A stretch of DNA of 64,000 bases from an uncultured Cytophaga sp. (GTDB lineage: Bacteria; Bacteroidota; Bacteroidia; Cytophagales; Cytophagaceae): contig NZ_CALMGQ010000136.1 of assembly GCF_937863595.1 (NCBI RefSeq), positions 1,894-65,893 of the forward strand, read 5' to 3'. The notes below the pieces were generated by a model that made no database searches, was not told where the DNA came from, and was given only the letters and a program-made list of their open reading frames with translations. The position numbers were made by a program, and so were the translations under genes. Positions 7,230 through 55,352 of the stretch are shown in pieces (positions within the stretch are counted from its first letter, which is position 1; each line of letters opens with the position of its first letter).

Positions 7230-7698
7230 AAAAACTGAAAAAGCTTACACCTCTGCTCAAGTATTTGTAAAAATTGCTTCCTTTTGCGCATACCAAGAAC
7301 GCACTCACCAAGAAGTTCGTCTAAAGTTATACGAATATGGCATAAAAACCGATGAAGTTGAAGCATTTATTGTAAAATTAATTGAGGATAATTTTATAAA
7401 TGAAGAACGTTTTGCAAAGGCATATGCAGGCGGAAAATTCAGAATTAAGAAATGGGGGCGTATAAAAATTATAAAAAGCCTGGAAATGAAAGGGTTAAGC
7501 CCATATTGTATTAAATCCGGTTTAAAAGAAATTGAAGAAAAGGATTATGTGGCGACAATCTCCAGCATTATTGACAAAAAAAATTCTGAAATACATCTAA
7601 AAAATCCCTACCAAAAAACATACAAAATTGCAGCTTACTTAATTTCTAGAGGTTTTGAAGCCGATTTGGTTTGGGATATGTTGAGATCTAGTGACTAG
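7219..7698 (+). CDS. recX: Regulatory protein RecX
   Basis: 159 aa with size and helical-repeat pattern typical of RecX (CAYQERTHQEVRLKLYEYG...). Confidence 0.8.
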   Translation: MATTKTEKAYTSAQVFVKIASFCAYQERTHQEVRLKLYEYGIKTDEVEAFIVKLIEDNFINEERFAKAYAGGKFRIKKWGRIKIIKSLEMKGLSPYCIKSGLKEIEEKDYVATISSIIDKKNSEIHLKNPYQKTYKIAAYLISRGFEADLVWDMLRSSD

Positions 7699-7722
7699 TT
7701 TCCAGGTGCTAGTTTCTAGAAG
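7688..7722. repeat. Heptad array, CTAG family, left arm: CTAGTGA CTAGTTT CCAGGTG CTAGTTT CTAGAAG
   Basis: C of C[TC]AG falls at 7688, 7695, 7702, 7709 and 7716, an exact 7-nt phase. The array includes the recX stop codon TAG (7696-7698). Confidence 0.85.
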
Positions 7723-7744
7723 TTGAAAATATGCGCTTGGTCTT

Positions 7745-7790
7745 AAAAAATAGCCTCATAAATCCTGAACGGATATGAGGCTATTTTTTT
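7745..7790. terminator. Bidirectional intrinsic terminator between convergent recX and lysC
   Basis: TAGCCTCATA (7751-7760) pairs with TATGAGGCTA (7774-7783). An A-run lies 5' and a T-run lies 3'. Confidence 0.8.
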
Positions 7791-7800
7791 ATTTTATTGT

Positions 7801-7835
7801 CGAGAAACTAGTAACTAGTCCCTGGAAACTATTTC
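7801..7835. repeat. Heptad array, CTAG family, right arm (inverted): CGAGAAA CTAGTAA CTAGTCC CTGGAAA CTATTTC
   Basis: Unit starts at 7801, 7808, 7815, 7822 and 7829. The reverse complement of 7821-7831 is TAGTTTCCAGG, identical to 7696-7706. The array contains the lysC stop codon (complement of 7829-7831). Confidence 0.85.
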
Positions 7836-9166
7836 ACTGCTTCTTCATGAAAAAACAATTTCTCGTTTAATACATTTAAAGTTTCATTTTTAGAATTTCC
7901 ATCTATCAATATGGATATGTTAAATAGACTACCGCCATACGAAATCATACGTACTGGTGTATGTTCTAAAGCATCAAACAATCGTTTGCTTGTGCCAACT
8001 TTACCTCTGCCAAAATTACCAACTACACAAATAATCGTTTGGTCTAAATCAACTACAACATTTGAAAATTCTTTCAATTCTGCTATAATCAAATCTAAAT
8101 TTTTAGCATCATCAATTGTCAAAGAAACTGCAACTTCAGAAGTTGTAATCATATCTACTGAAGTCTTAAACTTCTCAAAAATCTCAAATACTTTTCTCAA
8201 AAAGCCGTGTGCTTGCAACATTCTGCTCGATTTGATTTTGATCGCTGTAATGCCATCTTTAGCGGCAATTGCTGTAATATCTCTATCTGCAGGTCTATTG
8301 TTTATTACAGTACCTTTTTGCTCTGGATGCATCGTATTTAATAAACGTACAGGAACCTTACGTACTTGTGCTGGACGTATACATGTTGGATGTAAAATTT
8401 TGGCTCCAAAGTATGCTAACTCGGCTGCTTCATCAAACGATATTTCCGGTATTGGGAATGTACGCTTTACGATACGAGGATCGTTGTTGTGCATCCCATC
8501 AATATCTGTCCATATTTGAATTTCGTCCATTTGTAATGCTGCACCTACTAGAGTCGCGGTATAATCAGAACCTCCACGTTTCAAATTGTCAACTTCATTA
8601 TCCGAATTTAAACATACATACCCTTGTGTGATATACAGACTTTTATTTGGATGTTTTGCCAACTGCTCATTTAACTTTGTTTCAATATAATCCAACATCG
8701 GTTCATTGTCCGCATCCGTTTTCATAAACTCCAGTGCGGGCAATAATGCAGATGAATAACCTTGTTCAGACAAATATTCTTGGAACAAGTTTGTGGAAAT
8801 AATTTCTCCTTGAGCTAAAAACAAGCGTGTTTCTTTGTCGCCAAAGTTTGCTGCTCCAACGTATGATTTAATTAGATCATGGTATGTTTTAACAATAGCA
8901 TGGCCTTTTGATTTCCCTTCAGCTGTGCTGTATAGTTCTTCAACAAAAGCTTTATAAGGACCAAATAAGTTTGCTATAGCTTCTTCAGCAGCTTTCGTAT
9001 CTTTTTTAGTTAATTTATTAGATATGTCTACGAGTGCATTCGTAGTGCCTGAAACGGCTGATAATACAACTACTTTTATATCTGGAGTAGATGATATTAA
9101 TTTTGCAACAGAGTGCATACGATCTGGCTTACCTACAGATGTGCCACCGAATTTTAAAACTTTCAT
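7829..9166 (-). CDS. lysC: Aspartate kinase
   Basis: 445 aa with the MKVLKFGGTSVG aspartokinase N-terminus and a C-terminal ACT-like regulatory part. Confidence 0.9.
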   Translation of the reverse strand: MKVLKFGGTSVGKPDRMHSVAKLISSTPDIKVVVLSAVSGTTNALVDISNKLTKKDTKAAEEAIANLFGPYKAFVEELYSTAEGKSKGHAIVKTYHDLIKSYVGAANFGDKETRLFLAQGEIISTNLFQEYLSEQGYSSALLPALEFMKTDADNEPMLDYIETKLNEQLAKHPNKSLYITQGYVCLNSDNEVDNLKRGGSDYTATLVGAALQMDEIQIWTDIDGMHNNDPRIVKRTFPIPEISFDEAAELAYFGAKILHPTCIRPAQVRKVPVRLLNTMHPEQKGTVINNRPADRDITAIAAKDGITAIKIKSSRMLQAHGFLRKVFEIFEKFKTSVDMITTSEVAVSLTIDDAKNLDLIIAELKEFSNVVVDLDQTIICVVGNFGRGKVGTSKRLFDALEHTPVRMISYGGSLFNISILIDGNSKNETLNVLNEKLFFHEEAVK

Positions 9167-9197
9167 TATCTATTATTTCTAAATTGTTTTACTTAAT

Positions 9198-9677
9198 TTA
9201 TTTTGTTAGCGCTAACATTTTTAACGCAGTAATTGCTGCTTCATCGCCTTTATTGCCATGTTTTCCGCCTGCTCTATCGAAAGCTTGCTCCTTGTTATCT
9301 GTTGTTAATACCCCAAAGATAACAGGCTTGTTGTATTTTAAATTTACTTCTGTTATACCTGTTGCTACCGCTTGACAGATAAAATCAAAGTGTCGTGTTT
9401 CGCCTTGAATAACGCAGCCCAAACATATTACTGCGTCAACCTTGTCTTCTAATGCCAACCATTGCGCGCCCAAGCTTAATTCAAACGTACCCGGCACATT
9501 TGTGCGAATGATGTTTGATTTGGGAATGCCGTGCTTTGTAAGTACTTCCATTGCTCCCTCATACAACGCTTCTGTTATTTCTTCATTCCATTCTGCTACA
9601 ACAATACCAAACGTTTTTGAAGAAAGGTTGGGGATTTGTCCCGAATAACTACTTAAATTTTTATCTGCGCTTGACAT
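9198..9677 (-). CDS. ribH: 6,7-dimethyl-8-ribityllumazine synthase
   Basis: 159 aa with typical lumazine synthase length and pattern (FGIVVAEWNEEIT..., VPGTFELS, GVLTT). Confidence 0.9.
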   Translation of the reverse strand: MSSADKNLSSYSGQIPNLSSKTFGIVVAEWNEEITEALYEGAMEVLTKHGIPKSNIIRTNVPGTFELSLGAQWLALEDKVDAVICLGCVIQGETRHFDFICQAVATGITEVNLKYNKPVIFGVLTTDNKEQAFDRAGGKHGNKGDEAAITALKMLALTK

Positions 9678-9695
9678 ATTTTTGTTTTATACAAC

Positions 9696-21556: not shown

Positions 21557-21599
21557 TACAATAAAAAACCGATACAAATTGTATCGGTTTTTTATTGTA
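21557..21599. terminator. Bidirectional terminator with a 20-bp perfect stem
   Basis: TACAATAAAAAACCGATACA (21557-21576) pairs with TGTATCGGTTTTTTATTGTA (21580-21599). It lies between convergent genes. Confidence 0.8.
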
Positions 21600-27147: not shown

Positions 27148-28476
27148 ATGAGATATTGTTCCCTTTGTTTTTTTATCATTTTGGTTTTGCATTTTTTTGG
27201 TTGCAAGCCCAAAGATGAAGAGCTGAGCAACAATGTTAGCAATAGGCTGAGTTTTTCAGAAGATACTATTTTTTTTGATACCCTTTTTGCAAGTGTCGGC
27301 AGTATTACCAAAAGATTAATCGTTTACAATCCAAACAAAAATAAAATTCGTGTTTCAAGTATTATACTAGCGGGAGGCTCCAATTCTCCGTATAGCATTA
27401 TTGTAAACGGGCGCAGCGGTCCGCTAGTATCTGATCTAGAAATACTTGGTAAGGACAGCGTATATGTTTTGGTTAAAGTTTTAATAAATCCAAGCAATCA
27501 AAACATGCCCTTTCTGGTTAGTGATTCAATCTTATTCAATACCAATACGAACAATCAAAAAATACTACTTGAAACGTATGGTCAAGATGCGCATTTTTAT
27601 AAAAAAACCACCTTGCCTTGCAATACAACTTGGACAAACGATAAGCCCTATGTACTCTATGATACTATACAAATTGGTATTGGCTGTGAATTGAAAATAG
27701 AAGCCGGTTGCAAAATATACATGCACAATGCCGCTGCCATAAATGTTAAGGGGCGCTTAACGGTGGACGGAACCAAAACAGATTCTGTCTTGATTGCTTC
27801 AGATAAATTAGATGCTTCTGCAAAAGCAGATCTTGGTCAATGGGGCGGAATTATTTTCCAGACAACCAGCACAGACAACCGCATTTCTTGGACAACCATA
27901 CGGAATGCAACAACCGCATTGAAATTATTTTCAGTTGTGGATGCCGATACAATTGCAGAACTAAGTTTAGACCATGTATCGATACTTTATACAAGCAAAG
28001 GTTTGATAGATGCGGCGACTGTTGATCTAAATGGTTCAAACATTCTCTTAAGCAATAGTCCGTATGCTGCGCTTAAACACCTAGGTGGTTGTGGTGTTTG
28101 GAAGCACTGTACATTCGTAAATTATTCAACACGCTTTGTTAGAGAGGAGCCTTGTTTGGTGCTAGGCGATAATGCTTCTTCTTTAAAGATGTATGTATTT
28201 AACAGTATTTTGTGGGGTGATAAAACCGATGAAATTTTGGCAACAAATACGCCTGCACTTTTTGTGCAATCTAGTATTTGGAAGTCAGCCTTTCTTGGAA
28301 CGCATTCAACTATTTTGAATGCAGACCCTCTGTTTAAAAATAGCACACTATTTAATTTTCAATTAAAGGATACCTCCCCTGCCATCGACCTTTGTTTGCC
28401 AGTGGGTATTTCAGACGATTTAATTGGCACCCCAAGAGATGCTAACCCAGATGCTGGTGCGTATGAATTTCAATAG
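27148..28476 (+). CDS. Hypothetical lipoprotein
   Basis: 442 aa with a lipobox (LHFFGC). Beta-rich, and I recognised no family. Its TAG stop runs directly into a CTAG-family heptad array. Confidence 0.6.
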   Translation: MRYCSLCFFIILVLHFFGCKPKDEELSNNVSNRLSFSEDTIFFDTLFASVGSITKRLIVYNPNKNKIRVSSIILAGGSNSPYSIIVNGRSGPLVSDLEILGKDSVYVLVKVLINPSNQNMPFLVSDSILFNTNTNNQKILLETYGQDAHFYKKTTLPCNTTWTNDKPYVLYDTIQIGIGCELKIEAGCKIYMHNAAAINVKGRLTVDGTKTDSVLIASDKLDASAKADLGQWGGIIFQTTSTDNRISWTTIRNATTALKLFSVVDADTIAELSLDHVSILYTSKGLIDAATVDLNGSNILLSNSPYAALKHLGGCGVWKHCTFVNYSTRFVREEPCLVLGDNASSLKMYVFNSILWGDKTDEILATNTPALFVQSSIWKSAFLGTHSTILNADPLFKNSTLFNFQLKDTSPAIDLCLPVGISDDLIGTPRDANPDAGAYEFQ

Positions 28477-29779: not shown

Positions 29780-30568
29780 ATGAAAAGCAGATTCTTAATC
29801 CTATTTCTTTTTCTGATCTCCTTAGCAGTAGGTGCTCAACAAAGTGATTTTCCTGCAAAACCCAGTCCGCCAAGATTGGTAAATGATTTCGCAGGAATGT
29901 TGACGCCAACCGAAGTAAGTGAATTAGAGCAAAAAGTAAATAGATTTAATGATTCTACTTCGATAGAAATTTCTATTGTCATTATAGGAAACTTGGGCGA
30001 TTACGATATTGCAGATTATGCATTTCAATTAGGTGATTTATGGGGTATTGGTAAGAAGTCGAAAGACAATGGTGTCTTGTTGTTAATTGCAAAAGAAAAC
30101 AGAAAAGCATTTATAGCAACTGGCTACGGTATGGGTGGCGTATTGCCAGATATGCGTTGCAAACGTATCATCGAATCGGAGTTGATTCCTCAATTTAAAC
30201 GTGGGAATTATTACAATGGTATTAATTTTTCTGTAGATGCAATCATTCGTTACTCAGCAAACGAATATGTAGCAGACCCTGTACAACAAAAAGGCTTAAA
30301 GCCTGGTTATGTATTTCTATTCATACTTGTTGCTATCATTATTATCGGATTTATAAATCGCAAAGACTCAGGGAATAATTCAAACGGAAACTCTGGCAAT
30401 GGCAGCGGAGGCTTTTTAGGCGGACTTCTTGGCGGAGCTGCTATGGGCAGCAGCTATAGAAATAGTGGAGGGTTTGGTGGATTCGGAGGCGGAAGTAGCG
30501 GCGGAGGAGGCTTTGGTGGCTTTGGCGGTGGTGGTTTCGGTGGTGGCGGATCTGGCGGTAGTTGGTAA
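29780..30568 (+). CDS. TPM-domain protein, YgcG-like (signal peptide, TPM domain, TM helix, Gly-rich tail)
   Basis: 262 aa. VNDFAGMLTP...NGVLLLIAKENRKAFIATGYG is a TPM core. A TM helix (YVFLFILVAIIIIGFI) follows, and the tail reads GGFGGFGGGSSGGGGFGGFGGGGFGGGGSGGSW. Confidence 0.8.
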   Translation: MKSRFLILFLFLISLAVGAQQSDFPAKPSPPRLVNDFAGMLTPTEVSELEQKVNRFNDSTSIEISIVIIGNLGDYDIADYAFQLGDLWGIGKKSKDNGVLLLIAKENRKAFIATGYGMGGVLPDMRCKRIIESELIPQFKRGNYYNGINFSVDAIIRYSANEYVADPVQQKGLKPGYVFLFILVAIIIIGFINRKDSGNNSNGNSGNGSGGFLGGLLGGAAMGSSYRNSGGFGGFGGGSSGGGGFGGFGGGGFGGGGSGGSW

Positions 30569-30990: not shown

Positions 30991-31761
30991 ATGAAAAGCA
31001 GATTCCTATTCTTATTTATTTTACTATTTTCTTTTAAAGTAAGTGCGCAATCAAATGATTTCCCTCCAAAACCCAGTCCCGCGCGATTTGTAAACGACTT
31101 TGCAGGGCTGTTAAGTGCGACCGAAGCAAATGAATTGGAGCAAAAAGTAAAAAGATTTAACGATTCTACTTCCATAGAAATTGCCATTGTCATAATCAGC
31201 AATCTGGGTGATTATGACATTTCAGATTATGCATTCCAGTTAGGCGAATTATGGGGTATTGGTAAGAAATCAAAAAACAACGGTGTCTTATTATTAATCG
31301 CAAAAGAAAATAGAAAAGCATTTATAGCTACTGGTTATGGTATGGGTGGCGTTTTGCCAGATATGCGTTGCAAGCTCATCATCGAATCGGAGTTGGTTCC
31401 TCAATTTAAGCGTAGTAATTATTTCAATGGCATTAATTTTACGATTGACGCCATTATTCGGTATTCCGAAAATGAATATGCTGCAGATCCAAAGGGCAAT
31501 AAAAGTTCGCCGGTACCGAATTTGTTTATCATGATTTTCGTTCTCATTATTATAGTTAGTTTTTTCAACTATATAAATAGAGACAAGAAGGGAAATAATA
31601 AAAGTAGATCAAAAGGTGGTCGGTTTGGACCAATTATAGGTGGAGGTCTTGGTGGTTATAGTAGCGATAGCAGCGATAGTGACAGTTCTGGTGACAGTTC
31701 TGGCGGCGGTGGCTTTGGCGGCGGTGGCTTCGGTGGTGGTGGTTCTGGCGGTAGCTGGTAA
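30991..31761 (+). CDS. TPM-domain protein, YgcG-like (tandem paralog of 29780..30568)
   Basis: 256 aa. By eye it is roughly 85% identical to the first copy over the signal peptide and TPM domain. The TM and tail regions diverge (adds SDSSDSDSSGDSS) but end in the same GGSGGSW. Confidence 0.8.
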   Translation: MKSRFLFLFILLFSFKVSAQSNDFPPKPSPARFVNDFAGLLSATEANELEQKVKRFNDSTSIEIAIVIISNLGDYDISDYAFQLGELWGIGKKSKNNGVLLLIAKENRKAFIATGYGMGGVLPDMRCKLIIESELVPQFKRSNYFNGINFTIDAIIRYSENEYAADPKGNKSSPVPNLFIMIFVLIIIVSFFNYINRDKKGNNKSRSKGGRFGPIIGGGLGGYSSDSSDSDSSGDSSGGGGFGGGGFGGGGSGGSW

Positions 31762-40065: not shown

Positions 40066-40074
40066 ATTACTGAT

Positions 40075-40796: not shown

Positions 40797-40824
40797 CTAG
40801 CAACTGGAAACTAGCGCCTAGCAA
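40797..40824. repeat. Heptad array, CTAG family (inverted orientation): CTAGCAA CTGGAAA CTAGCGC CTAGCAA
   Basis: C[T]NG units start at 40797, 40804, 40811 and 40818. The reverse complement contains CTAGTTTCCAG, as at 7695-7705. Confidence 0.8.
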
Positions 40825-40954
40825 CATTTCTTCGTGTTTGGGCAAAAACCAGCGTACACGAATTATTAAAACACAATCCAATAGTTTCACTGAAATGTGC
40901 TACTAGAGTTTCATTTTTTATTGTACCTTATCGCTGTATCTTATCCCTGTTATT

Positions 40955-43986: not shown

Positions 43987-43987
43987 T

Positions 43988-45016: not shown

Positions 45017-45060
45017 ATTTTTAAAGATATATTAATTTTAATATACATAACGACAAATTT

Positions 45061-45774
45061 ATGAAAAAAATATCGCTTCTTTTTTTATCTAGCTTTTTAA
45101 CTGTAGCAAGTTTTGCTCAAGTAACCATTGGCTTGCGTGCTTCATCGGTTGTATGTATGGATCGAGTAAAAGATTTGAACAATGCAGATGGTTATGAATT
45201 TAAAAATAATAGTTCAGGTATTCGTTTTGCAGTAGGCCCAACGTTTGATTTTGCAATAAGCGACAATTATGCCTTTTCTACAGGTGCGTGGTATTTAAGT
45301 AGAAGATCTGGATTGTCTATTAACAGCCCTTCTGGAGTCACAAATCCAGCCACAAATCCATTTAGCCTCTACCAAGGTTCGGTTGACCAAAAGGATATTG
45401 TAAGTCTTCAATCCGTCCAAATTCCAATAACATTTAAAGTGTATACAAATGAAATTACAACCAATGTAAAGTTGTATTTTCAATTAGGCGCATTAGCAAC
45501 CATAAATTTTTATGAAAAATTTAAAAGTCAAAATTCTAGTTTAGTTGGTGATTATCAAAACAAATACAATGCATTTGATGTGTCTGCCTACATGGCGGCA
45601 GGCGTTAATTACCAGATTGGTGAATCGAATGCTTTGTTTGCTGGATTGTATTATAGCAGAGGTCTAACAAACGTTTTGAATAGTAGAACTTCTAATACAA
45701 CTAATGAAAAATTTAATAAGTCTGCAAAATACAATATGGATTTAATTGGTTTAGAAGTAGGTATAAACTTTTAA
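45061..45774 (+). CDS. Outer-membrane beta-barrel protein (OMP_b-brl_2 / PorT-like family)
   Basis: 237 aa with a signal peptide (FLTVASFAQ), amphipathic beta-strands and a terminal ...VGINF. Confidence 0.55.
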   Translation: MKKISLLFLSSFLTVASFAQVTIGLRASSVVCMDRVKDLNNADGYEFKNNSSGIRFAVGPTFDFAISDNYAFSTGAWYLSRRSGLSINSPSGVTNPATNPFSLYQGSVDQKDIVSLQSVQIPITFKVYTNEITTNVKLYFQLGALATINFYEKFKSQNSSLVGDYQNKYNAFDVSAYMAAGVNYQIGESNALFAGLYYSRGLTNVLNSRTSNTTNEKFNKSAKYNMDLIGLEVGINF

Positions 45775-45792
45775 AATACGTTATTATTAATA

Positions 45793-45833
45793 AAAAAATC
45801 CCTTTCCGATAATTATCAGAAAGGGATTTTTTT
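45793..45833. terminator. Bidirectional intrinsic terminator
   Basis: AAAAAATCCCTTTC (45793-45806) pairs with GAAAGGGATTTTTT (45819-45832). Confidence 0.8.
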
Positions 45834-45853
45834 ATTAATACGATATTAAAGAA

Positions 45854-47461: not shown

Positions 47462-47498
47462 GCTTCTATTTAAATGTAAAAGGTTCTAAAATAGAAAT

Positions 47499-47525
47499 TA
47501 GCTGGAATCTGAAAGAAACCAGCTA
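47499..47525 (-). terminator. Candidate terminator after the 29-aa basic ORF
   Basis: TAGCTGG (47499-47505) pairs with CCAGCTA (47519-47525). T-rich downstream on the minus strand. Confidence 0.4.
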
Positions 47526-47552
47526 TTTCAAAACTTATTAAGAAAGAAGGGA

Positions 47553-47642
47553 CTACTTCTTCTTATGTCTATTTTTTCTTAGACGTTTTTTTCTTTTGTG
47601 TGTAGCGATCTTATGTCGTTTTCTTTTTTTACCGCAAGGCAT
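47553..47642 (-). CDS. 29-aa hyper-basic protein MPCGKKRKRHKIATHKRKKRLRKNRHKKK (candidate small ribosome-associated protein, bS22/AURKAIP1-like)
   Basis: ATG at 47642 and TAG at 47553-47555. It falls below the ORF-track length cut-off. About 20 of 29 residues are K/R/H. It sits between the TPR gene and rne/rng on the same strand and is followed by a hairpin. Confidence 0.5.
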   Translation of the reverse strand: MPCGKKRKRHKIATHKRKKRLRKNRHKKK

Positions 47643-47668
47643 AATTGTAATCGTTTAAATGTATAATA

Positions 47669-48556
47669 TTATTGATTAGATTCTTTTAAATAGCTATCAA
47701 CGATTGCTTGAAACTCAGGGTCTTTATCCAACCCTTTTGCTTTTTCAAAGTATTGTTTCGCCTTCTTTTTATTTCCCAATTCTTGATAACTTAAACCTAA
47801 GTAAAACGTTCCAGACGCATGTTCTGGATTCACTTCAGTCAAAGTTTTAAAGCGCTCTGCTGCTTTCGCATATTGGCCAGATTGCATAGACAAATATCCC
47901 AAATTAAATAAAGCCGTTTGATTTGTCGGATCTTCTTTAATTACATCTCTCAAAAGAGTGACGCCTTCCATTGGGTTAGACGTGGTAACATACGTCATTG
48001 CCAATTTGGATTTTGTATCTAAATCTGCTGCATTTAACTCAAGCGCTTTTTTATAAAAGCCTCTTGATTTATCCATGTAAGCAGATTTTTCATTTACTGA
48101 AACTAAATCTGATGCTTGCATGAATGCATCGCCTGCAGAAACTAAATTTTTCTCGGTTGGCTGCAATACTGCAATTTCCCCTGAATATTTAGCAACACTA
48201 TCATATTGGTGGAATTTTGTATAAAACACCAAAATTGAGTCTGCAAAGATACGCTTTTTTTCGTTATTCGAAATGGAATAATAATTCTTTGTTAAATCTT
48301 GTATTCTTTTTTGATCGGCATCAGACGCTTTATGCGTGTGCTTCTCAGCCATCATTTTGCCAATCTCAGATAACGAGTCCGATTTAGCAACAGGTGTTTC
48401 TGTGCCAGACACCTCATCTTTTTCATTGTGAACCAAGAACTTAGGAAGGCTAAATACAAGTCCAATACCTACTACAGCTATTAAAGCTACAATGATTTGT
48501 TTCTTTTGCATGATTAAAGAAGAATAGAAAGAGCCTGCATGTACATACAGGCTCAA
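47669..48556 (-). CDS. Membrane-anchored tetratricopeptide-repeat protein
   Basis: 295 aa. The likely start is Met16 (48511; MQKKQIIVALIAVVGIGLVF). TPR-like repeats follow (e.g. ALFNLGYLSMQSGQYAKAAERFK). Confidence 0.65.
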   Translation of the reverse strand: MSLYVHAGSFYSSLIMQKKQIIVALIAVVGIGLVFSLPKFLVHNEKDEVSGTETPVAKSDSLSEIGKMMAEKHTHKASDADQKRIQDLTKNYYSISNNEKKRIFADSILVFYTKFHQYDSVAKYSGEIAVLQPTEKNLVSAGDAFMQASDLVSVNEKSAYMDKSRGFYKKALELNAADLDTKSKLAMTYVTTSNPMEGVTLLRDVIKEDPTNQTALFNLGYLSMQSGQYAKAAERFKTLTEVNPEHASGTFYLGLSYQELGNKKKAKQYFEKAKGLDKDPEFQAIVDSYLKESNQ

Positions 48557-48586
48557 CTCATTTTATTTCATCAAATAATGCTGATA

Positions 48587-48919
48587 CTAGTCAACTTCTT
48601 CGTCAGCAGCAATAAGTTTCTCTGCCATAACTTTTACTTTCTTGCTAGATTTGATTTTCTCAACGAAAACCTTAGCAGGCTTAAAGCTTGGAATGTAGTG
48701 CTCATCTATGATGATTGCTGTGTTTTTAGAAATGTTACGTGCTACTTTGCGTGCGCGTTTTTTGTTGATAAAACTACCGAAACCTCTTACGTAGATGTTG
48801 TTTCCTTCAGACATAGAGTCCTTGACAACCTTAAAGAATGCTTCTACTGTTGTTGTTACATCAGCTTTGTCAATTCCTGTCTTTTCTGCGATTTCGTTAA
48901 TTACGTCTGCCTTCGTCAT
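48587..48919 (-). CDS. HU family DNA-binding protein
   Basis: 110 aa with MTKADVINEIAEKTGI...VRGFGSF...RNISKNTAIIIDEHYIPSFKPAK, the HU/IHF fold pattern, plus an acidic C-terminal extension. Confidence 0.9.
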   Translation of the reverse strand: MTKADVINEIAEKTGIDKADVTTTVEAFFKVVKDSMSEGNNIYVRGFGSFINKKRARKVARNISKNTAIIIDEHYIPSFKPAKVFVEKIKSSKKVKVMAEKLIAADEEVD

Positions 48920-49044
48920 TACTCTATATTTATTAATTATATGATACTTAATTAGTTCAAAAATAGCTTACAAATTTAGGCTACTATTTCGTGAATAAAA
49001 AATATATTTACTTAATTAATCCTACATAATTTTGTGTAACATAA

Positions 49045-50136
49045 GTGGTTAAGCACTTCGTCCCCATGCAAGATCCTACAATGATACAAAAAAAATTCCA
49101 TAAAGAACTGATTCGATGGTATTTAAAAAATAAAAGAGAACTCCCTTGGCGAGAAACAACGGACCCATATCCAATATGGCTCTCGGAAATAATTTTACAA
49201 CAGACTCGCGTTCAGCAAGGAATGCCTTATTATTTTGCCTTTTTAACGCAATTTCCCTCTGTTTTCGACCTTGCAAATGCGAGTGAAAAAGATGTTTTAT
49301 CTCTTTGGCAAGGCCTAGGATATTATTCAAGAGCCCGAAATTTACATAAAACTGCCCAGCAAATTGTAACTGAATTTAATGGCGTTTTCCCGGATTCTTA
49401 TGTTGGATTGTTGACTTTAAAAGGCGTAGGGCCCTATACTGCAGCAGCAATAGCTTCCTTTGCCTATAAAGAAAAAGTATCTGTTGTGGATGGAAACGTC
49501 TACCGCGTATTAACCCGAGTCTTTGGTATTTATGAGGATATAACCTTAAATACAACAAAGAAACAGATAGCCGAATTAGCTCAAAGCCTTATACCCACTA
49601 AAGATCCAGACATTTACAATCAGGCAATCATGGAGTTTGGTGCGATGCATTGTACCCCTGCTGATCCCAATTGTGAAAATTGTCCATTTTCAGGGATTTG
49701 CGTAGCATATAGTGCGGGCGACCAAAAAATATTGCCACTTAAAGCAAAGGCAAAGGCGAAACAAAATAGATTCTTTAATTATTTTATCATTCGTAATGGC
49801 GATGTGGTTTTAATGAAAGAACGTGGTGCAAACGATATTTGGCAAGGTTTGTATGAATTTTGGTTGCACGAAACAGAGCGTATCGTGAGCTTAGACGAAC
49901 TGCTGCTCGACCAAATAAGACTTACAGAAAAGCATCTGCGTGCGGAATACGGACCATATAAACACATTTTAAGTCACCAAATCTTACATGCATCCTTTTA
50001 TGCATTTGATGTTCCTAAAATAATATTCAACGCCATAAAAAAGCAATATTCGATGCAAGAAATTAACATAAGTGAAATAACGCAAACCCCAAAGCCTGTT
50101 TTGATTACTAAGTGTTTGAGGGCTCATAAATTTTAA
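49045..50136 (+). CDS. mutY: A/G-specific adenine DNA glycosylase MutY
   Basis: 363 aa with HhH-GPD (LKGVGPYTAAAI), a 4Fe-4S motif CTPADPNCENCPFSGIC and a C-terminal NUDIX-like domain. The start is probably ATG 49066. Confidence 0.9.
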   Translation: MVKHFVPMQDPTMIQKKFHKELIRWYLKNKRELPWRETTDPYPIWLSEIILQQTRVQQGMPYYFAFLTQFPSVFDLANASEKDVLSLWQGLGYYSRARNLHKTAQQIVTEFNGVFPDSYVGLLTLKGVGPYTAAAIASFAYKEKVSVVDGNVYRVLTRVFGIYEDITLNTTKKQIAELAQSLIPTKDPDIYNQAIMEFGAMHCTPADPNCENCPFSGICVAYSAGDQKILPLKAKAKAKQNRFFNYFIIRNGDVVLMKERGANDIWQGLYEFWLHETERIVSLDELLLDQIRLTEKHLRAEYGPYKHILSHQILHASFYAFDVPKIIFNAIKKQYSMQEINISEITQTPKPVLITKCLRAHKF

Positions 50137-50192
50137 GTATCTTTATTATTAATTAATAAATTTTTCAATACAGCTAAAAACAAAAAACTCCC

Positions 50193-50651
50193 ATGGCAGG
50201 AATTAACAAAGTAATTTTAGTAGGGCATCTTGGTAAAGATCCTGAAGTACGTGCAGTAGGCACAGATCGTAAAGTTGCAAACTTTTCTTTGGCAACTACA
50301 GAATCTTACAAAAACAAAAACGGCGAACGTGTTGACCAGACTGAATGGCACAACATTGTATTTTGGGGGCCAATTGTAGATGTAATTGAACGTTATCTTA
50401 AAAAAGGAAGTCAAATCTATGTTGAAGGCAAAATTCGTTCGCGTTCATACGATGATAAAGATGGCATTAAAAGATACGCAACGGATATCGTTGGTGATAC
50501 TATGACAATGTTAGGAGGAAAACCTAATTCAGAAAATTCTGGAGGGTCGTCTACATCAAACGCATCATCGTCAAGTCCATCTAGTCCAGCAATGGAAAGC
50601 GCTGGATCATTTGAGCCGCAAACTAGTGGTGCAGACGATTTACCATTCTAA
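50193..50651 (+). CDS. ssb: Single-stranded DNA-binding protein
   Basis: 152 aa with an OB fold (MAGINKVILVGHLGKDPE...TEWHNIV.WG), a Gly/Ser-rich linker and an acidic tip DDLPF. Confidence 0.95.
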   Translation: MAGINKVILVGHLGKDPEVRAVGTDRKVANFSLATTESYKNKNGERVDQTEWHNIVFWGPIVDVIERYLKKGSQIYVEGKIRSRSYDDKDGIKRYATDIVGDTMTMLGGKPNSENSGGSSTSNASSSSPSSPAMESAGSFEPQTSGADDLPF

Positions 50652-50759
50652 TTTTCACAAAAAATTGTTAATGGAACGATCATCTGATCCTTACCCCATA
50701 CCTACATACAGTATAGTTGCTGCTTATAACACTCCTATACTATATGCTTAAACAATTGT

Positions 50760-50805
50760 AAAGTCTGTTGTAAGTAATTTACTTATGACAGACTTTTTTT
50801 ATTTT
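50760..50805 (+). terminator. Intrinsic terminator after ssb
   Basis: AAAGTCTGT (50760-50768) pairs with ACAGACTTT (50788-50796), followed by TTTTTATTTT. Confidence 0.75.
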
Positions 50806-50831
50806 AAAACAAACTAATCAATTAACGTTTT

Positions 50832-51710
50832 ATGTCCGAAGGGAATAAACAGAATAAAAAGTCGAGCAATTCATTTTCAAAATGGCTGCGTAAATCAATT
50901 GGTATTCCAGAGATTACCGACAGCCAACGCGAGTATATTGAAAAACTAGAGCACGAGTTAGAGTCAACCAAAGGGAAACTTAGCACGCGCGAAGAAAAAG
51001 AAATGCTTCGAGGATTGGTGAAATTTGGCAATATCATGGTGAAGCAAATTATGTGCCCACGTATGGATATGGCTGCTGTTGATATTGCATTAACATATCA
51101 AGAATTACAACAATATATTAGTACCTGCGGCTTCTCAAGAATTCCTGTATACAAAGAATCTGGTGATAAGATTGAAGGTGTTTTAAATATTAAAGACTTA
51201 TTTCCGTTTTATAACAAAGACAAAGACTTTCACTGGCAACAATTGATTCGCACAGTAGAATTTATCCCTGAAACAAAACTGATAGAAGAGCTCTTGCGCG
51301 AGTTCCAATTGAAACACTTACATATGGCCATTGTTGTGGATGAATATGGTGGTACCGCTGGCTTAATTACAATGGAAGATGTGATTGAGGAAATTGTTGG
51401 AGACATACACGATGAGTATGATGATGATATCAAACAATTTGCAAAATTGAGTGATACCAGTTATTTAGTAGAAGGTAAAATGTCTTTGGTAGATTTCTAC
51501 AAAGCGCTCGAATTAGATCGCGATGTTTTCGCTGAAGTGAAAGGTGAAAGCGAAACCTTAGGTGGCCTATTACTAAACATCAACTCTGACATGCCAAAAC
51601 TTGGCGATGAGATTACGTATGCGGATTACATTTTTAAAATTGATGCAGTAACAAATAAGCGCATCTTGCGCGTTAAAGTAACCGTTCCTGAAAATGAACA
51701 TAACAAATAA
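50832..51710 (+). CDS. CorC/YbeX-like protein (CBS pair + CorC_HlyC domain, no DUF21 membrane domain)
   Basis: 292 aa with a CBS-pair region (VKQIMCPRMDM..., AIVVDEYGGTAGLITMEDVIEEIVGDI) and a C-terminal transporter-associated domain. It occupies the slot upstream of gldD. Confidence 0.8.
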   Translation: MSEGNKQNKKSSNSFSKWLRKSIGIPEITDSQREYIEKLEHELESTKGKLSTREEKEMLRGLVKFGNIMVKQIMCPRMDMAAVDIALTYQELQQYISTCGFSRIPVYKESGDKIEGVLNIKDLFPFYNKDKDFHWQQLIRTVEFIPETKLIEELLREFQLKHLHMAIVVDEYGGTAGLITMEDVIEEIVGDIHDEYDDDIKQFAKLSDTSYLVEGKMSLVDFYKALELDRDVFAEVKGESETLGGLLLNINSDMPKLGDEITYADYIFKIDAVTNKRILRVKVTVPENEHNK

Positions 51711-52290
51711 AACATTTCTTCTTTTATCTTTTGCTGCCTCAATGTTGCTCTTGTCTTCTTGTAATGAAGAAACAACATTTCAACCCAAGCCAAAAGGATA
51801 TAACAAAATAGATCTACCTGCACACACGTACGATACGCTTAAAGGCGACTATCCATACACCTTTGAATATGCGCACACAGCTATTATTGCGCCCGATACA
51901 AGCAAAACAGCAGAACCTTATTGGCTTGATATTTACTACCCAGAATATAAAGCAAATATTCAAATCACCTATAAAAACCCGAAGGGCAATGCAAAATTGC
52001 TTGATGAATACATACGGGATTCCCATACCTTAGCAAATAAGCATAATGTAAAAGCATACGCCATCGACGAACTGATTATTTCAAACCCAAATGGCTACGC
52101 TGTTAAGGTATTCGAATTAGCAGGTGATGTGCCTAGTCAAATACAATTTCACGTGAGTGATTCAACAAATCATTTCCTACGTGGTGCCGTATATTTTAGA
52201 ACGTCTACTAAAAATGATTCGCTTGCGCCAGTCATTCGTTATATGAAAGAAGATGTACTACATCTAATTGAAACACTTAAGTTTAAATAA
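51694..52290 (+). CDS. gldD: Gliding motility lipoprotein GldD
   Basis: 198 aa with a lipobox (LLLSSC), PKPKGYNKIDLP near the N-terminus and a C-terminal ...DSLAPVIRYMKEDVLHLIETLKF, as I recall for GldD. It overlaps the upstream gene by 17 nt. Confidence 0.65.
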   Translation: MNITNKTFLLLSFAASMLLLSSCNEETTFQPKPKGYNKIDLPAHTYDTLKGDYPYTFEYAHTAIIAPDTSKTAEPYWLDIYYPEYKANIQITYKNPKGNAKLLDEYIRDSHTLANKHNVKAYAIDELIISNPNGYAVKVFELAGDVPSQIQFHVSDSTNHFLRGAVYFRTSTKNDSLAPVIRYMKEDVLHLIETLKFK

Positions 52291-52291
52291 T

Positions 52292-52333
52292 AAAACTAAA
52301 TTCCAAATAACAAAAAACAAATTCCAAACTACT
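52292..52333. repeat. Heptad array, CAAA family (left arm): AAAACTA AATTCCA AATAACA AAAAACA AATTCCA AACTACT
   Basis: C falls at 52304, 52311, 52318, 52325 and 52332, an exact 7-nt phase. The array starts 2 nt after the gldD stop. Confidence 0.75.
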
Positions 52334-52344
52334 GAAATCTACAT

Positions 52345-52380
52345 CCGTTTGTTATTTATTATTTGTTATTTGTTTTTTTG
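52345..52380. repeat. Heptad array, CAAA family (right arm, inverted): CCGTTTG TTATTTA TTATTTG TTATTTG TTTTTTTG
   Basis: Units start at 52345, 52352, 52359 and 52366. The reverse complement reads CAAATAA/CAAAAAA units like the left arm. The array ends 8 nt before the recG start. Confidence 0.75.
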
Positions 52381-52387
52381 AGAAGCT

Positions 52388-54478
52388 ATGTCAACACTCC
52401 TTGACACTAAAGTCGAGTTTCTAAAGGGTATTGGGCCGCAAAAAGCTGCGTTGCTTAATACAGAGTTGCGTATTTTCACCTTTGAAGATTTACTGTATTA
52501 TTTTCCTTTCAGACATGAGGATCGCAGTAAAATCTATCCCATCAAAGATATTCACGAAGACCTCCCCTATATACAAGTTCGGGGAAGAATAACAGGCATA
52601 TCATCGCAAGGTGTTGGACCAAAGAAACGACTGATCGCTTTTGTACAAGACGATACAGGAATTTTAGAATTGGTTTGGTTTCAGGGTGGTGCTTGGATTG
52701 AAAAAAATATTTTACCCAATACCATTTACGTAGTTTTTGGTAAACCCAATCTCTATGGCCGCAAACTCAATGTGGTGCACCCAGAAATGGAAGTGTATTC
52801 AGATGAGCATGCGCAAAAAGGATTGCAGGCTGTATACAATGTTACAGAGAAACTAAAAGGCAGAAGCATCGATAGCAAAGCGCTTTCAAAAATAATTGAA
52901 CGTGTTGTCAAAGAAGTTGCGCCACGCTTGCCCGAAATATTGCCTGCTAACATCATTCAAAACTTCAAACTTATCTCCCGAGCGCAAGCAATGGAGTGGA
53001 TACACATGCCACCCAATGCTGCGTCTTTAGAGAAAGCAATTGCACGGTTGAAGTTTGAAGAATTATTTTTGATTCAAATTAAATTACTGCATCAAAAAAG
53101 TTACCGTAAAGTACATTACAAAGGATTTGTGTTTAATCACATACCAACCTTAAATGTATTTTACAAAGAACATCTTCCATTTGATTTAACTGATGCTCAA
53201 AAAAGAGTTATCAAAGAAATCTACAAAGACGTTACTTCTGGAACACAGATGAACAGACTCTTACAAGGTGATGTTGGTAGCGGAAAAACAATTGTAGGTT
53301 TTTTATGTATGATCATGGCCATTGATAATGGCTATCAAGCGTGCTTGATAGCACCTACAGAAATACTTGCGGCACAACATTATGAAGGCTTAAAAGAACT
53401 CGCTTCTAAAGTAGGCCTAACGGTTGCTAAGCTTACAGGTTCATCCAAGAAAAAAGAACGCGAAGTTATTCATCGTGATTTGCTCGATGGAAGTTTGAAT
53501 ATATTAATTGGCACCCACGCCATTCTCGAAGACATTGTTCAGTTTAAAGAATTAGGGATTTGTATCATCGATGAACAACATCGTTTTGGCGTAGCACAAC
53601 GTGCAAAACTTTGGAAGAAAAATAAAGAAACGCCTCCACATATTTTGGTGATGACGGCAACGCCTATTCCACGTACGTTGGCAATGACTTTGTATGGCGA
53701 TTTAGATATTTCTGTAATTGACCAAATGCCAGCAGGTAGAAAGCCTATTTCTACATCGCACAAATACGACAAAGATCGTTTGCTTGTATTCGGCTTTATT
53801 CGTAAACAGGTATTGGAAGGCCGACAAGTATACATCGTGTATCCCTTAATTGAAGAATCTGAAAAATTAGATTTAAAAGATTTGATGGATGGTTTTGAAA
53901 GTGTGAATCGTGCGTTCCCAGAGTTTCCTATAAGTATTCTTCATGGACGTATGAAGCCCGCAGACAAAGACTATGAAATGCAACGTTTTGTAAAAGGCGA
54001 AACAAAGATCATGGTTGCCACAACTGTTATTGAAGTAGGTGTAAACGTACCGAATGCAAGTGTGATGGTGATTGAAAATTCAGAGCGCTTTGGGTTGTCG
54101 CAGTTGCATCAATTGCGCGGTCGCGTTGGTCGTGGTGCAGATCAATCGTATTGCGTCCTAATGACGAGTCATAAATTATCAGCAAATAGTAAAACACGTA
54201 TAGAAACAATGGTGCGTACCACCAACGGCTTTGAAATCGCAGATGTAGATTTGAAACTCCGCGGACCAGGTGATTTAGCAGGTACGCAACAAAGCGGCGT
54301 ATTGGATTTAAGATTGGCGGATTTGGCTCAAGATGCACATACCCTGCAACACAGCCGACAAGCAGCGATGGACTTGCTAGACAGTGATCCCGATTTATTA
54401 AAACCTGAAAATCGTATGCTCCGTGGTTACATGGAATCGAAAAGTAAGAATAGTAAAGAGTGGAGTAGAATTAGTTAA
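52388..54478 (+). CDS. recG: ATP-dependent DNA helicase RecG
   Basis: 696 aa with a wedge/OB N-terminus and SF2 helicase motifs (GDVGSGKT, DEQHRFG, MTATPIPRT, QLHQLRGRVGRG). Confidence 0.95.
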   Translation: MSTLLDTKVEFLKGIGPQKAALLNTELRIFTFEDLLYYFPFRHEDRSKIYPIKDIHEDLPYIQVRGRITGISSQGVGPKKRLIAFVQDDTGILELVWFQGGAWIEKNILPNTIYVVFGKPNLYGRKLNVVHPEMEVYSDEHAQKGLQAVYNVTEKLKGRSIDSKALSKIIERVVKEVAPRLPEILPANIIQNFKLISRAQAMEWIHMPPNAASLEKAIARLKFEELFLIQIKLLHQKSYRKVHYKGFVFNHIPTLNVFYKEHLPFDLTDAQKRVIKEIYKDVTSGTQMNRLLQGDVGSGKTIVGFLCMIMAIDNGYQACLIAPTEILAAQHYEGLKELASKVGLTVAKLTGSSKKKEREVIHRDLLDGSLNILIGTHAILEDIVQFKELGICIIDEQHRFGVAQRAKLWKKNKETPPHILVMTATPIPRTLAMTLYGDLDISVIDQMPAGRKPISTSHKYDKDRLLVFGFIRKQVLEGRQVYIVYPLIEESEKLDLKDLMDGFESVNRAFPEFPISILHGRMKPADKDYEMQRFVKGETKIMVATTVIEVGVNVPNASVMVIENSERFGLSQLHQLRGRVGRGADQSYCVLMTSHKLSANSKTRIETMVRTTNGFEIADVDLKLRGPGDLAGTQQSGVLDLRLADLAQDAHTLQHSRQAAMDLLDSDPDLLKPENRMLRGYMESKSKNSKEWSRIS

Positions 54479-54485
54479 AGGAAGT

Positions 54486-54520
54486 GGAAGGCTTAATGCG
54501 GAAGGCCTAAGGCTTCATAC
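54486..54520. repeat. Heptad array, GGAAGGC family: GGAAGGC TTAATGC GGAAGGC CTAAGGC TTCATAC
   Basis: AA falls at 54488, 54495, 54502 and 54509, an exact 7-nt phase. The array starts 8 nt after the recG stop. Only a weak complementary arm (GCACCTTTCC near 54615) is visible. Confidence 0.7.
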
Positions 54521-54595
54521 TATACCACTGACCTTTAAATAAATTAATTGTATACTTTTTTAAATTGATAATTTTAAAAACATCATAAAACAAAA

Positions 54596-54626
54596 AAGGT
54601 TCGAACTTTCGCCCGCACCTTTCCTA
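54596..54626 (-). terminator. Candidate intrinsic terminator after lspA
   Basis: On the minus strand, AAAGGT...ACCTTT encloses GCGGGCGAAAGTTCGA and is followed by TTTTGTTTT. Confidence 0.5.
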
Positions 54627-54644
54627 TTCTTTAAATTAATATTT

Positions 54645-55262
54645 TTATAATTCCTCTTCTTTTTTCTCCTCAACAACCTTTACTTCTTCTGGGAAATACC
54701 TTTTCTGAAAAATCAAAATAAGTGCTACACCAACAAAAATCGTTGCATCTGCAAAATTAAAGATTGGCCACAAAGGATAATAACTTCCGCCAATACCAGG
54801 TACCCATTCTGGAATAAGACAATTGCAGATATCTACATAAAACATATCAATGACTCTGCCGTGAAACCAAAGCATGGGAGCATCGTAGGTTGGTAGATTT
54901 AAGAACACACCATAAAACGTACTGTCTACCACATTTCCCATAGCGCCGCCCAATATCAATGCCACGCACCAAAGGAAGCCTTCGTGCATCTCTTTCTTAG
55001 CCATTTTATACAAATAAATAGTTATTACACCCATTGCTACCAAACGGAACAAACTCAAAATAAGCTTGCCGTAATTTCCTGCAATCTTAATTCCGAAGGC
55101 CATTCCTTCATTGGTGATGTAATGCAACTTAAACCAATCTCCTAATCGAATGCTCGGGTGTTCGTAGCCTTCAAATGGAAACGTTTTAAAAACCCATAAC
55201 TTGATTATTTGATCGATTAAAATAACCAGTATGGTAAGTATGAAATATTTTGTGTAACGCAT
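54645..55262 (-). CDS. lspA: Lipoprotein signal peptidase (signal peptidase II)
   Basis: 205 aa with 4 TM helices and LspA boxes (TNEGMAFG, GGAMGNVVDS, FNFADATIFVG). It has an unusual acidic C-terminal tail EEVKVVEEKKEEEL. Confidence 0.9.
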   Translation of the reverse strand: MRYTKYFILTILVILIDQIIKLWVFKTFPFEGYEHPSIRLGDWFKLHYITNEGMAFGIKIAGNYGKLILSLFRLVAMGVITIYLYKMAKKEMHEGFLWCVALILGGAMGNVVDSTFYGVFLNLPTYDAPMLWFHGRVIDMFYVDICNCLIPEWVPGIGGSYYPLWPIFNFADATIFVGVALILIFQKRYFPEEVKVVEEKKEEEL

Positions 55263-55297
55263 TTTTAAGTTTTAAGTAATATGTTTTAAGTTTTAAG
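55263..55297. repeat. Heptad array, TTAAG family (left arm): TTTTAAG TTTTAAG TAATATG TTTTAAG TTTTAAG
   Basis: G falls at 55269, 55276, 55283, 55290 and 55297, an exact 7-nt phase. The array begins 1 nt upstream of the lspA start codon. Confidence 0.9.
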
Positions 55298-55323
55298 AAA
55301 AAGAAATATTGAGAATGGGCCCT

Positions 55324-55352
55324 CATATAACTTATTACTTAAAACTTAAAAC
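55324..55352. repeat. Heptad array, TTAAG family (right arm, inverted): CATATAA CTTATTA CTTAAAA CTTAAAA C
   Basis: C falls at 55324, 55331, 55338, 55345 and 55352. Segment 55333-55351 is the perfect reverse complement of 55263-55281 (19 bp). The array ends 2 nt before the ileS stop codon. Confidence 0.9.

Follow-up and report, generated by a model that had tools for sequence, protein, structure and literature searches.

Short tandem arrays of degenerate 7-nt units (heptads) occupy the spacers between genes in a 64,000-nt stretch of Cytophaga DNA (G+C 36%), called the window below, and as a rule they are set in inverted pairs. The window carries ordinary housekeeping genes, namely recX, lysC, uvrA, ydcZ, an ECF sigma factor gene, gldD, recG, lspA, ileS and others. 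These arrays are best explained as the form, dense and AT-rich, which the excess of 7-bp simple repeats known from prokaryotes takes in the Cytophaga lineage. We hold with moderate confidence that they are quasi-palindromes of degenerate heptanucleotide tandem repeats that originated at the level of DNA, and on the best reading these quasi-palindromes would form stem-loops at gene boundaries in transcripts.

The nearest relatives of the RecG protein are those of Cytophaga aurantiaca DSM 3654 (94% amino-acid identity) and of Cytophaga metagenome-assembled genomes (MAGs; 90-93%), so that the window is from a Cytophaga species, perhaps C. hutchinsonii. Comparison loci were gathered around recG, uvrA, lspA and lysC of the relatives. 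The Cytophaga lineage is represented by 13-16 related loci holding 32-35 arrays, the densities given below being based on 13 non-redundant sequences with 32 arrays, and 156 other Bacteroidota loci were used as the background set (169 loci in all). A metagenome scan with UvrA served for background statistics only, because its best relative was 69% identical and with none above this the metagenome relatives were of no help for orthologous spacers.

The arrays had first been noticed in a sequence-only reading of the window, and its own rule, by which an array must have four or more contiguous units with at least 4 of the 7 positions in common, was adopted here. By this rule nine arrays were found in the window where 0.08 were expected, and at equivalent stringency there were none at periods 5, 6 and 8-11. 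All nine are intergenic and none was found in coding DNA of the whole window. In the most frequent arrangement four columns are fixed and three vary, and an array has 4-6 units. Self-match of the intergenic DNA was raised at lags 7, 14 and 21 (z 2.9-3.1 each against dinucleotide shuffles), the other lags lacking the same consistency. Local lag-7 segments scoring at least 10 numbered six against 0.09 expected, which none of 200 shuffles reached, and the same test at the other periods from 3 to 13 and at 15 gave at most one segment each; period 14 was also positive. Independently, the TRF program reported period-7 arrays at 38409, 38896, 39073, 52304, 52348, 55263 and 55329. The count of 13 arrays in 8 intergenic regions made in the sequence-only reading is accounted for by the nine strict arrays and four weaker ones (7688-7720, 7797-7832, 28474-28516 and 40797-40821), and the examples of exact phase which it gave from 38119, 55269, 7688, 52304 and 54488 onward all hold.

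The same signal is present in the relatives. The 32 period-7 arrays of the Cytophaga lineage, none of them coding, amount to 85 per 100 kb of intergenic DNA or roughly one per 5-7 kb of genome, and the intergenic DNA of this lineage has no arrays at periods 5, 6, 8, 9 and 10. In the other Bacteroidota there were 76 intergenic period-7 arrays, a density of 26 per 100 kb in intergenic DNA against 0.75 per 100 kb in coding DNA, and 4, 12 and 6 intergenic arrays at periods 6, 8 and 10, respectively. Taking all loci together, 108 intergenic arrays have period 7. Some heptad arrays of the other Bacteroidota are longer or cleaner (L051:8171-8286, L071:2887-2940, L076:822-860 and L009:1645-1781); one such example consists of 16 units of TTGTTAG, and a single L009 spacer holds five overlapping arrays.

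The arrays of the window and the terminator that lies between two of them are as follows.
7688-7720: CTAG-type arm, CTAGTGA CTAGTTT CCAGGTG CTAGTTT CTAGAAG, which holds the recX stop codon (7696-7698).
7745-7790: ordinary two-way hairpin terminator with a 16-bp perfect stem and A and T runs, nested between the CTAG arms.
7797-7832: CTAG-type arm, inverted partner of 7688-7720, which holds the lysC stop codon (7829-7831).
28474-28516: ATAG/CTAG/CCAG-type array beginning at the stop codon of the gene 27148..28476, with spacings of 8, 7, 7, 7 and 7.
38114-38154: GTAC-type array A, AGTACTT AGTACGC AGTATAA AGTATGG AGTACTA, upstream of and adjoining the conserved box before uvrA.
38406-38439: GTAC-type array B, directly after the ydcZ stop codon (38441-38443).
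38892-38925: GTAC-type array C, 10 nt upstream of the ydcZ start codon and part of a 219-bp module (38889-39107).
39071-39106: GTAC-type array D, TGTACTA TGTACTT TGTACTT TGTAC, at the outer end of the same module.
40797-40821: short CTAG-type array of 3 units in the spacer upstream of the asparagine synthase gene, for which no clear partner was found.
52298-52332: CAAAnnn arm, directly after the gldD stop codon (52288-52290).
52346-52380: nnnTTTG arm, inverted partner of 52298-52332, ending 7 nt before the recG start and followed by a T run.
54486-54515: GGAAGGC/CTAAGGC array directly after the recG stop codon (54476-54478), weakly self-complementary and with no separate partner.
55263-55297: TTTTAAG arm abutting the lspA start codon (55262, minus strand).
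55324-55354: CTTAAAA arm, inverted partner of 55263-55297 (the pair is 92% complementary over 26 nt), abutting the ileS stop codon.

An inverted partner, defined as a match of at least 17/21 within 400 nt, was found for 88% of the Cytophaga-lineage arrays as against 1% of control spacer segments, and for 14% of the arrays in other Bacteroidota as against 2% of controls. The arrays keep to the edges of the spacers: an array is removed from the nearer edge by a median of 2 nt, and a distance of no more than 5 nt was found for 57%, as against 16% on random placement in the same spacers. Usually the spacer is filled by the pair, which runs from the stop codon of one gene up to the gene opposite, and the loop between the arms varies from 4 to 252 nt. 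Contact with the stop codons of recX, lysC, the gene 27148..28476, ydcZ (a DUF606 gene), ileS, gldD and recG had been described in the sequence-only reading and is borne out. When the paired arms were folded, long hairpins resulted on either strand, with energies of about -14 to -57 kcal/mol and z from -2.9 to -8.3. The ileS-lspA pair gave -23.5 kcal/mol (z -5.7), the gldD-recG pair -13.9 kcal/mol on the sense strand (z -2.9) and -22.6 kcal/mol on the antisense strand (z -4.2), and the recX-lysC pair, whose arms are complementary at 88% over 24 nt, -55 kcal/mol with the inner terminator included (z -8.3). The lone array after recG did not fold significantly (54486-54515, z -1.65).

That the arrays are intrinsic terminators, which have a short G+C-rich stem with a T run behind it, was considered and rejected. 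None of them was among the 21 terminator-like sites returned by a scan of 37900-55500, and the recX-lysC arms enclose a canonical terminator of their own, which was seen at 7745-7790 in the inverted-repeat and the fold analyses just as had been claimed. A T run follows some of the 3' arms (52380 onward, 38110 onward and in the related locus L164). Elsewhere in the window two near-perfect palindromes lie between convergent genes, 45785-45840 (28 nt, 96%) and 21557-21599 (21 nt, 100%); they have almost no loop, carry A and T runs, show no heptad build and look like ordinary two-way terminators.

The ileS-lspA spacer could be followed in eight distinct lineages, and in all of them it folds (-15 to -36 kcal/mol). 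The word differs by clade, being GTTTTAA/CTTAAAA (TTTTAAG) in one and GTGTAAA/TTTACAC (TGTAAAG) in the other. When the orthologous spacers were aligned, compensatory changes between the arms were found: 10 of the 17 consensus pairs have changed on both sides without loss of pairing, and pairing holds in 85.8% of the cells. Covariation scored 0.412 where shuffled alignments gave 0.216, none of 500 of which reached it, and slid controls stayed at or below 0.24; because the eight sequences fall into two clades, these are few independent events. Thus the three outcomes that the sequence-only reading had named as speaking against it, namely that the arrays be no commoner than in shuffled DNA, be absent from the rest of the genome and its relatives, or lack both a bias towards gene ends and covariation between arms, are contradicted by the excess over shuffles, the presence in relatives, the edge bias and the covariation of the arms.

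A hairpin that is kept in eight lineages with compensatory changes is also what is expected if the arrays are RNA elements under selection, which would act in termination or attenuation, in protection of 3' ends, as sites of RNase III cutting between cistrons, or by masking the downstream start, with the repeats providing several registers. The arrangement of the genes is in keeping with this, since 19 of the 21 array-bearing spacers are downstream of a gene (16 are co-directional, 3 convergent and 2 divergent), the arms abut stop and start codons, T runs stand behind some 3' arms, and the ileS-proximal arm in the window could pair with either of two unit pairs beside the lspA start. The strands, however, do not bear it out. 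For 16 hairpins whose sense strand is known, the best ungapped stems contained 346 Watson-Crick pairs and 9 G.U, 8 A.C and 33 other mismatches, a tally of low power in which G.U is not in excess over A.C, and fold energies of sense and antisense strands showed no consistent difference, the antisense fold at gldD-recG being far better than the sense fold. Because G.U equals A.C on the sense strand and both strands fold about equally, nothing points specifically to RNA. In addition, implausibly long transcripts would be needed for the arms that flank ydcZ and for a pair in a divergent spacer, arrays have been lost in close relatives with intact flanking genes (L001 at recG and L180 at lysC), and neither the terminator scan nor Rfam, which had no match at gathering score in the whole window, caught any of them. 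We therefore consider it unlikely that selection on RNA accounts for the arrays. The first of the three possibilities raised in the sequence-only reading, that of register-flexible stem-loops at gene boundaries, is upheld as to structure by the folds, the 88% of arrays with partners, the edge bias and the covariation; its boundary function is not, as no strand-specific sign of RNA was seen.

The sequence-only reading had also stated that each locus uses its own word. This is true of the CAAA, the TTTTAAG/TGTAAAG and the AAGGC families, three of the five, which were found at orthologous sites only and change in place, but not of the CTAG-type and GTAC-type arrays, which form dispersed families of about 8 sites each in 352 kb. 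In the window the CTAG-type occurs in four spacers and the GTAC-type in four places around ydcZ. Among the CTAG-type arrays, 7695-7712 is identical at 17 of 18 positions to 40797-40814 on the other strand, and the array at 28474-28516 has TAGTTTCTAGA and CCAGGTG in common with the 7688 arm; by inspection only, a possible weak partner of the 28474 array is 28735-28755 (CTAAATC TAAAATC TATACCC), beside the start of a LemA-family gene. The units of array B are nearly identical to L178:11457-11488, at the recX-lysC locus of another species. Arrays B and D, and likewise A and C, are direct copies of each other, while B matches C in inverted orientation, and this is the best complementarity among the GTAC arrays (38405-38439 with 38892-38926, 32/35). 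This pair spans the ydcZ gene and not a spacer.

The gene ydcZ (38441-38881, a DMT exporter of 146 aa) is thus bracketed by a 35-bp inverted repeat. In the window, L161, L162 and L164 it has the sigma factor gene on one side and uvrA on the other, in L165 it is downstream of uvrA, and in L166 the region is without it; judged from these arrangements it could be a movable or invertible cassette. Directly upstream of uvrA, a box TGAATAAAAAAGYGGAACTTTAAAG (38079-38104, minus strand) is kept in all six relatives with UvrA 86-99% identical while its surroundings are replaced, and it is a candidate promoter or regulatory site of uvrA.

Comparison of further sites showed both change in place and turnover of whole modules. 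At ydcZ-uvrA the arms are AGTACnn in the window and in its sister strain L161, AGTGGTC/GACCACT in L162 and AGTnnTC in L164, where the hairpin has an 11-nt loop and a T run; relatives with ydcZ elsewhere or without it have no arms at this site. At recX-lysC the arms are CTAG-type in the window and L176 and GTAC-type in L178, whereas L180 has a terminator only, and the inner terminators are non-homologous, each lineage having its own. The CAAA/TTTG pair upstream of recG is kept in three MAGs (L002, L003 and L004) and absent from C. aurantiaca (L001), and AAGCC/AAGGC arrays follow recG at the orthologous place in L004 and L174. In L161, whose UvrA is 99% identical to that of the window, the flanks are 97% identical and the stretch with arrays A and B is 98.5% identical, yet the 219-bp module of the window (array D, core, array C) is replaced by an unrelated stretch of 242 bp (L161:8914-9155). 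Both modules lie between the sigma factor gene and ydcZ and each is bounded by its own kind of heptad array. The ends of the L161 module are an inverted pair of CTAG-type arrays, one of which (L161:9118-9153) is 89% identical over 36 nt to 7797-7832 of the window. Array D is absent at its site in L161, L162 and L164.

Such a swap, with bounds that are exact to the array, raises the possibility that the modules are non-autonomous mobile elements resembling REPINs (doublets of repetitive extragenic palindromic, or REP, sequences) or bacterial interspersed mosaic elements (BIMEs), whereby an inverted array pair and its contents would be copied in trans by a transposase, for example a REP-associated tyrosine transposase (RAYT), a Y1 enzyme whose own gene has the elements on its flanks. 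The occurrence of CTAG-type and GTAC-type arrays at unlinked loci and at non-orthologous sites of different species agrees with this, as do the presence or absence of modules at the same site (L164, L165, L166 and L180 are without them) and the fact that the arrays are nearly always inverted doublets, like REPINs (PMC3116915). We nevertheless regard mobility as rather unlikely to be the explanation, for three of the five families are restricted to orthologous sites and altered in place, the dispersed ones have a low copy number, the spacing of the arms is not fixed, the swapped module shows no target-site duplication at its borders, and the arrays carry neither a GTAG nor a CGTC tag (cf. PMC3733652). 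GTAC-bounded modules have only their arrays in common, the internal sequences being unrelated, and this together with the missing target-site duplication led us to reject miniature inverted-repeat transposable elements (MITEs) as well. No transposase was seen among the 40 window proteins scanned, and a single-copy gene elsewhere in the genome is possible.

Both the omega repressor of inc18 plasmids and HutP, with its NAG-N4 sites, recognize nucleic acid in steps of 7 nt, direct or inverted, and in each case one protein reads one fixed word in its own regulon, WATCACW for the omega repressor and two sets of NAG triplets for HutP. The arrays described here flank unrelated housekeeping genes and their words vary by locus and by species, and with no such regulator encoded beside the arrays, sites of the omega-repressor or HutP type were rejected. 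The more general proposal, made in the sequence-only reading with these two as precedents, is that an oligomeric nucleic-acid-binding protein occupies the arrays cooperatively, advancing by 7 nt; cold-shock protein, with one heptamer to each domain, would be a third precedent. The strict period and the four fixed columns of seven would suit such a reader, and CspB is known to bind heptamers with weak specificity (PMC4679880). An AG at a fixed column is found in CTAG, AGTAC, TTTTAAG, TGTAAAG, AAGGC and CAGTnnT, that is, in six of seven word families, which gives a formal fit to NAG-N4, but the fit is not significant because more than half of random heptamers are expected to have AG on one strand or the other, and the CAAA/TTTG family lacks it. 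The pattern of fixed and variable columns was likewise not accepted as proof that a reader exists. If 4-5 non-consensus cells are placed at random in an array of 4-5 units, they occupy three columns or fewer in 35-65% of cases, and at a divergence of about 15% it is not unusual, given the detection rule, for 4-5 units to share four fixed columns; the pattern is uninformative because the arrays are small and the rule selects it. Above all, at least five unrelated words are in use and are replaced between species at a fixed site, and the scans of the window proteins gave no candidate heptad-binding protein encoded next to the arrays. A common protein reader is thus very improbable, and the arrays do not appear to be operators of one sequence-specific protein, so that the second possibility of the sequence-only reading is not supported, although individual word families may have a reader.

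Mini-hairpins formed by palindromic 4-nt cores (CTAG, GTAC, TTAA) were rejected as the source of the 7-nt step, as palindromic cores make up 7.1% of period-7 core runs against a baseline of 6.25% in 81 sequences, and so were restriction-site avoidance or decoys, the counts of CTAG, GTAC and TTAA being near expectation in coding and intergenic DNA alike. A scan of viral contigs gave no match to the CTAG word and two to the GTAC word, about the chance level, one of them a real array in a GC-rich phage. This array, in the IMG/VR viral contig L181 (5738-5772), is of AGAGTAC type with five units, GTACAGA GTACGGA GTACAGA GTACAGA GTGAGGA, and is followed immediately by a Shine-Dalgarno sequence and a start codon. 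The phage contig being unrelated, this word can evidently come about in other places too.

Of the three possibilities raised in the sequence-only reading, the third, that the arrays are the footprint of hairpin-linked slippage, is the most compatible with these results, although it needs modifying since adjacent units are no more alike than distant ones and modules were swapped instead of unit numbers changing. In the reading that we prefer, the arrays would arise in non-coding DNA by slippage in steps of 7 nt, probably in bursts, and would then decay by point mutation. A few perfect adjacent copies are seen (39083-39096, and GACCACT three times in L162). The arms of a pair are 87% identical to each other whereas the units within an array are 73% identical, and it therefore appears that, once the units had diverged, one arm was copied from the other or corrected against it. 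Such copying of arm from arm could take place by intramolecular template switching in a hairpin or by recombination between the arms, with occasional copying from a related array elsewhere in the genome; instead of correction arm by arm, an array may have been duplicated in inverted orientation. Selection on coding sequence would limit the spread of the arrays, and we infer that this is why they stop at codon boundaries. Any transcript across a pair would carry an AU-rich stem-loop of 20-35 bp at its 3' end or between cistrons, and for this reason an effect on RNA ends or processing is likely. The hairpin would probably act as a barrier to 3' exonucleases, as a site for a double-strand RNase or as a longer stem for a terminator; possibly it is a by-product.

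Several points weigh against an origin by slippage and copying between arms. Similarity between units is flat with distance (5.11, 5.11 and 5.10 of 7 at distances 1, 2 and 3) and adjacent units are identical in only 7% of cases; ongoing slippage unit by unit is therefore not visible, and an origin in bursts, or copying of whole arrays, has to be assumed. The number and order of units differ between species in the recG and ileS-lspA comparisons, but no change in unit number was seen between near-identical strains: the window and L167 are identical at ileS-lspA, and array A of the window differs from that of L161 by one substitution. Such an origin does not account for the step of seven, the idea that it reflects polymerase contact being second-hand through papers that cite Mrazek et al. 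2007, and the hairpin kept at one site in eight lineages is also expected from selection on RNA or DNA structure. The alternatives considered here overlap in part with this origin and with one another. A further one is that heptad-built hairpin modules of a class not yet described, each with an arm, a variable core and a second arm, occur in the Cytophagaceae and are made or moved by dedicated machinery. This would explain jointly the strict period, the near-universal pairing and the module swap between flanks that are 97% identical. A hairpin-dependent copying enzyme would be one candidate for the machinery and a transposase reading the 7-nt register and not the word another, and the modules may serve as interchangeable gene-boundary cassettes, some with terminators. 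We think it doubtful that such a class is the answer.

If the hairpins act on transcripts, the arrays would punctuate operons in Bacteroidota as a common layer that annotation has missed, in a phylum not known to have Hfq or ProQ. If they are a by-product, they report on an unexplained 7-nt step in replication or repair. In either case the Cytophaga lineage offers a clean case for study, since its arrays are dense, nearly all paired and set edge to edge between housekeeping genes, and its graded relatives show how both arms change in a compensatory way, how the word at a fixed site is exchanged and how whole modules are replaced between strains. As far as the accessible literature goes, the cause and use of the bacterial excess of 7-bp repeats, reported in 2007, are not settled (PMC4679880, PMC4692102).

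Other repeats of the window lie in coding DNA. A degenerate CCCATG repeat with period 6/12/18 is found at 17497-17608 within the open reading frame (ORF) 17170-18771 (minus strand; 533 aa, no Pfam match) and presumably encodes a low-complexity region rich in Gly, His and Met. Two genes that are neighbours, ORF 29780..30568, with a TPM domain in the orthologues of relatives, and 30991..31761, itself a TPM-domain gene, have period-15 repeats at their 3' ends, TGGTGGATTTGGCGG at 30514-30559 and TGGCGGCGGTGGCTT at 31701-31751, respectively, from which glycine-rich tails would result.

The sequence-only reading had placed the arrays in no named class, and our literature search found no paper describing them in Cytophaga, but heptanucleotide simple sequence repeats, the short tandemly repeated repetitive (STRR) sequences of cyanobacteria and the inverted pairs of (GGGANTN)n in Xanthomonas are precedents (PMC4692102, PMC4679880). 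REP sequences are a different matter. They are palindromes of 20-40 nt with a GTAG or CGTC tag, present in hundreds of near-identical copies, and REPINs have a fixed spacing (PMC3116915, PMC2817692, PMC3733652). Like REPs, BIMEs and REPINs, the Cytophaga arrays are extragenic, form inverted doublets with long hairpins, include dispersed families, vary in presence or absence between strains and often stand after stop codons or between genes of an operon. Their arms, however, are tandem heptads, mostly of low copy or from a single locus and 4-252 nt apart, and with no palindromic unit, as the weak fold of the lone array after recG indicates, no tag and no characteristic spacing they were rejected as REPs or REPINs.

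The TAACTGA heptamers described by MacGregor (2015) in Beggiatoaceae, Cyanobacteria and five Bacteroidetes are intergenic, often a few nt from a start codon, and translational regulation was proposed for them; they are direct repeats with one indirect case in 170 (PMC4679880). Genomes of Cytophagia and Flavobacteriia are among the carriers, and spacers of Gramella and Aequorivita hold other heptamer repeats (PMC4679880). A single word across phyla in direct orientation is unlike the arrays of Cytophaga. In the broader survey of Mrazek, Guo and Shah (2007), as related by later papers, seven is the favoured unit length among the longer prokaryotic simple repeats, these have an intergenic bias, and polymerase slippage is proposed as their origin, favoured by the length of the polymerase contact (PMC4679880, PMC4692102). 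Head-to-tail units of exactly 7 nt, an excess over chance and over neighbouring unit lengths, and an intergenic bias where the unit length is no multiple of three are features of these long simple sequence repeats (LSSRs) and of STRR sequences that all hold here. As those repeats are described at second hand, the counts there are of near-perfect repeats, whereas the units here are about 73% alike, adjacency gives no signal, no change of copy number was seen at the level of strains and inverted pairing is the rule.

The closest likeness is to the (GGGANTN)n heptamers (GGGAATC) of Xanthomonas described by Rehm et al. (2015). There, a genome has 183-186 arrays, mostly of four units, 89-93% of them intergenic and on average 28 nt away from the 3' end of the ORF upstream, with 70-75 convergent inverted pairs per genome that are capable of forming stem-loops; they occupy the same gene intervals in related species with much variation in length and sequence, and no role has been assigned to them (PMC4692102). 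The Cytophaga arrays share with these the heterogeneous 7-nt units with 4-5 fixed positions, the number of about four units and the convergent inverted intergenic pairs near the 3' end of the upstream ORF. They differ in that one dominant G-rich word with potential for G-quadruplexes is used in Xanthomonas, whereas several AT-rich words are used here, CTAGnnn, AGTACnn, CAAAnnn, TTTTAAG and GGAAGGC, which have no G tracts and of which none could form a quadruplex, and in that pairing is here near-universal and a pair often fills the whole spacer. The kind of repeat is thus already known, and what sets the Cytophaga arrays apart is that they are AT-rich, built from several words, nearly all paired and spacer-filling.

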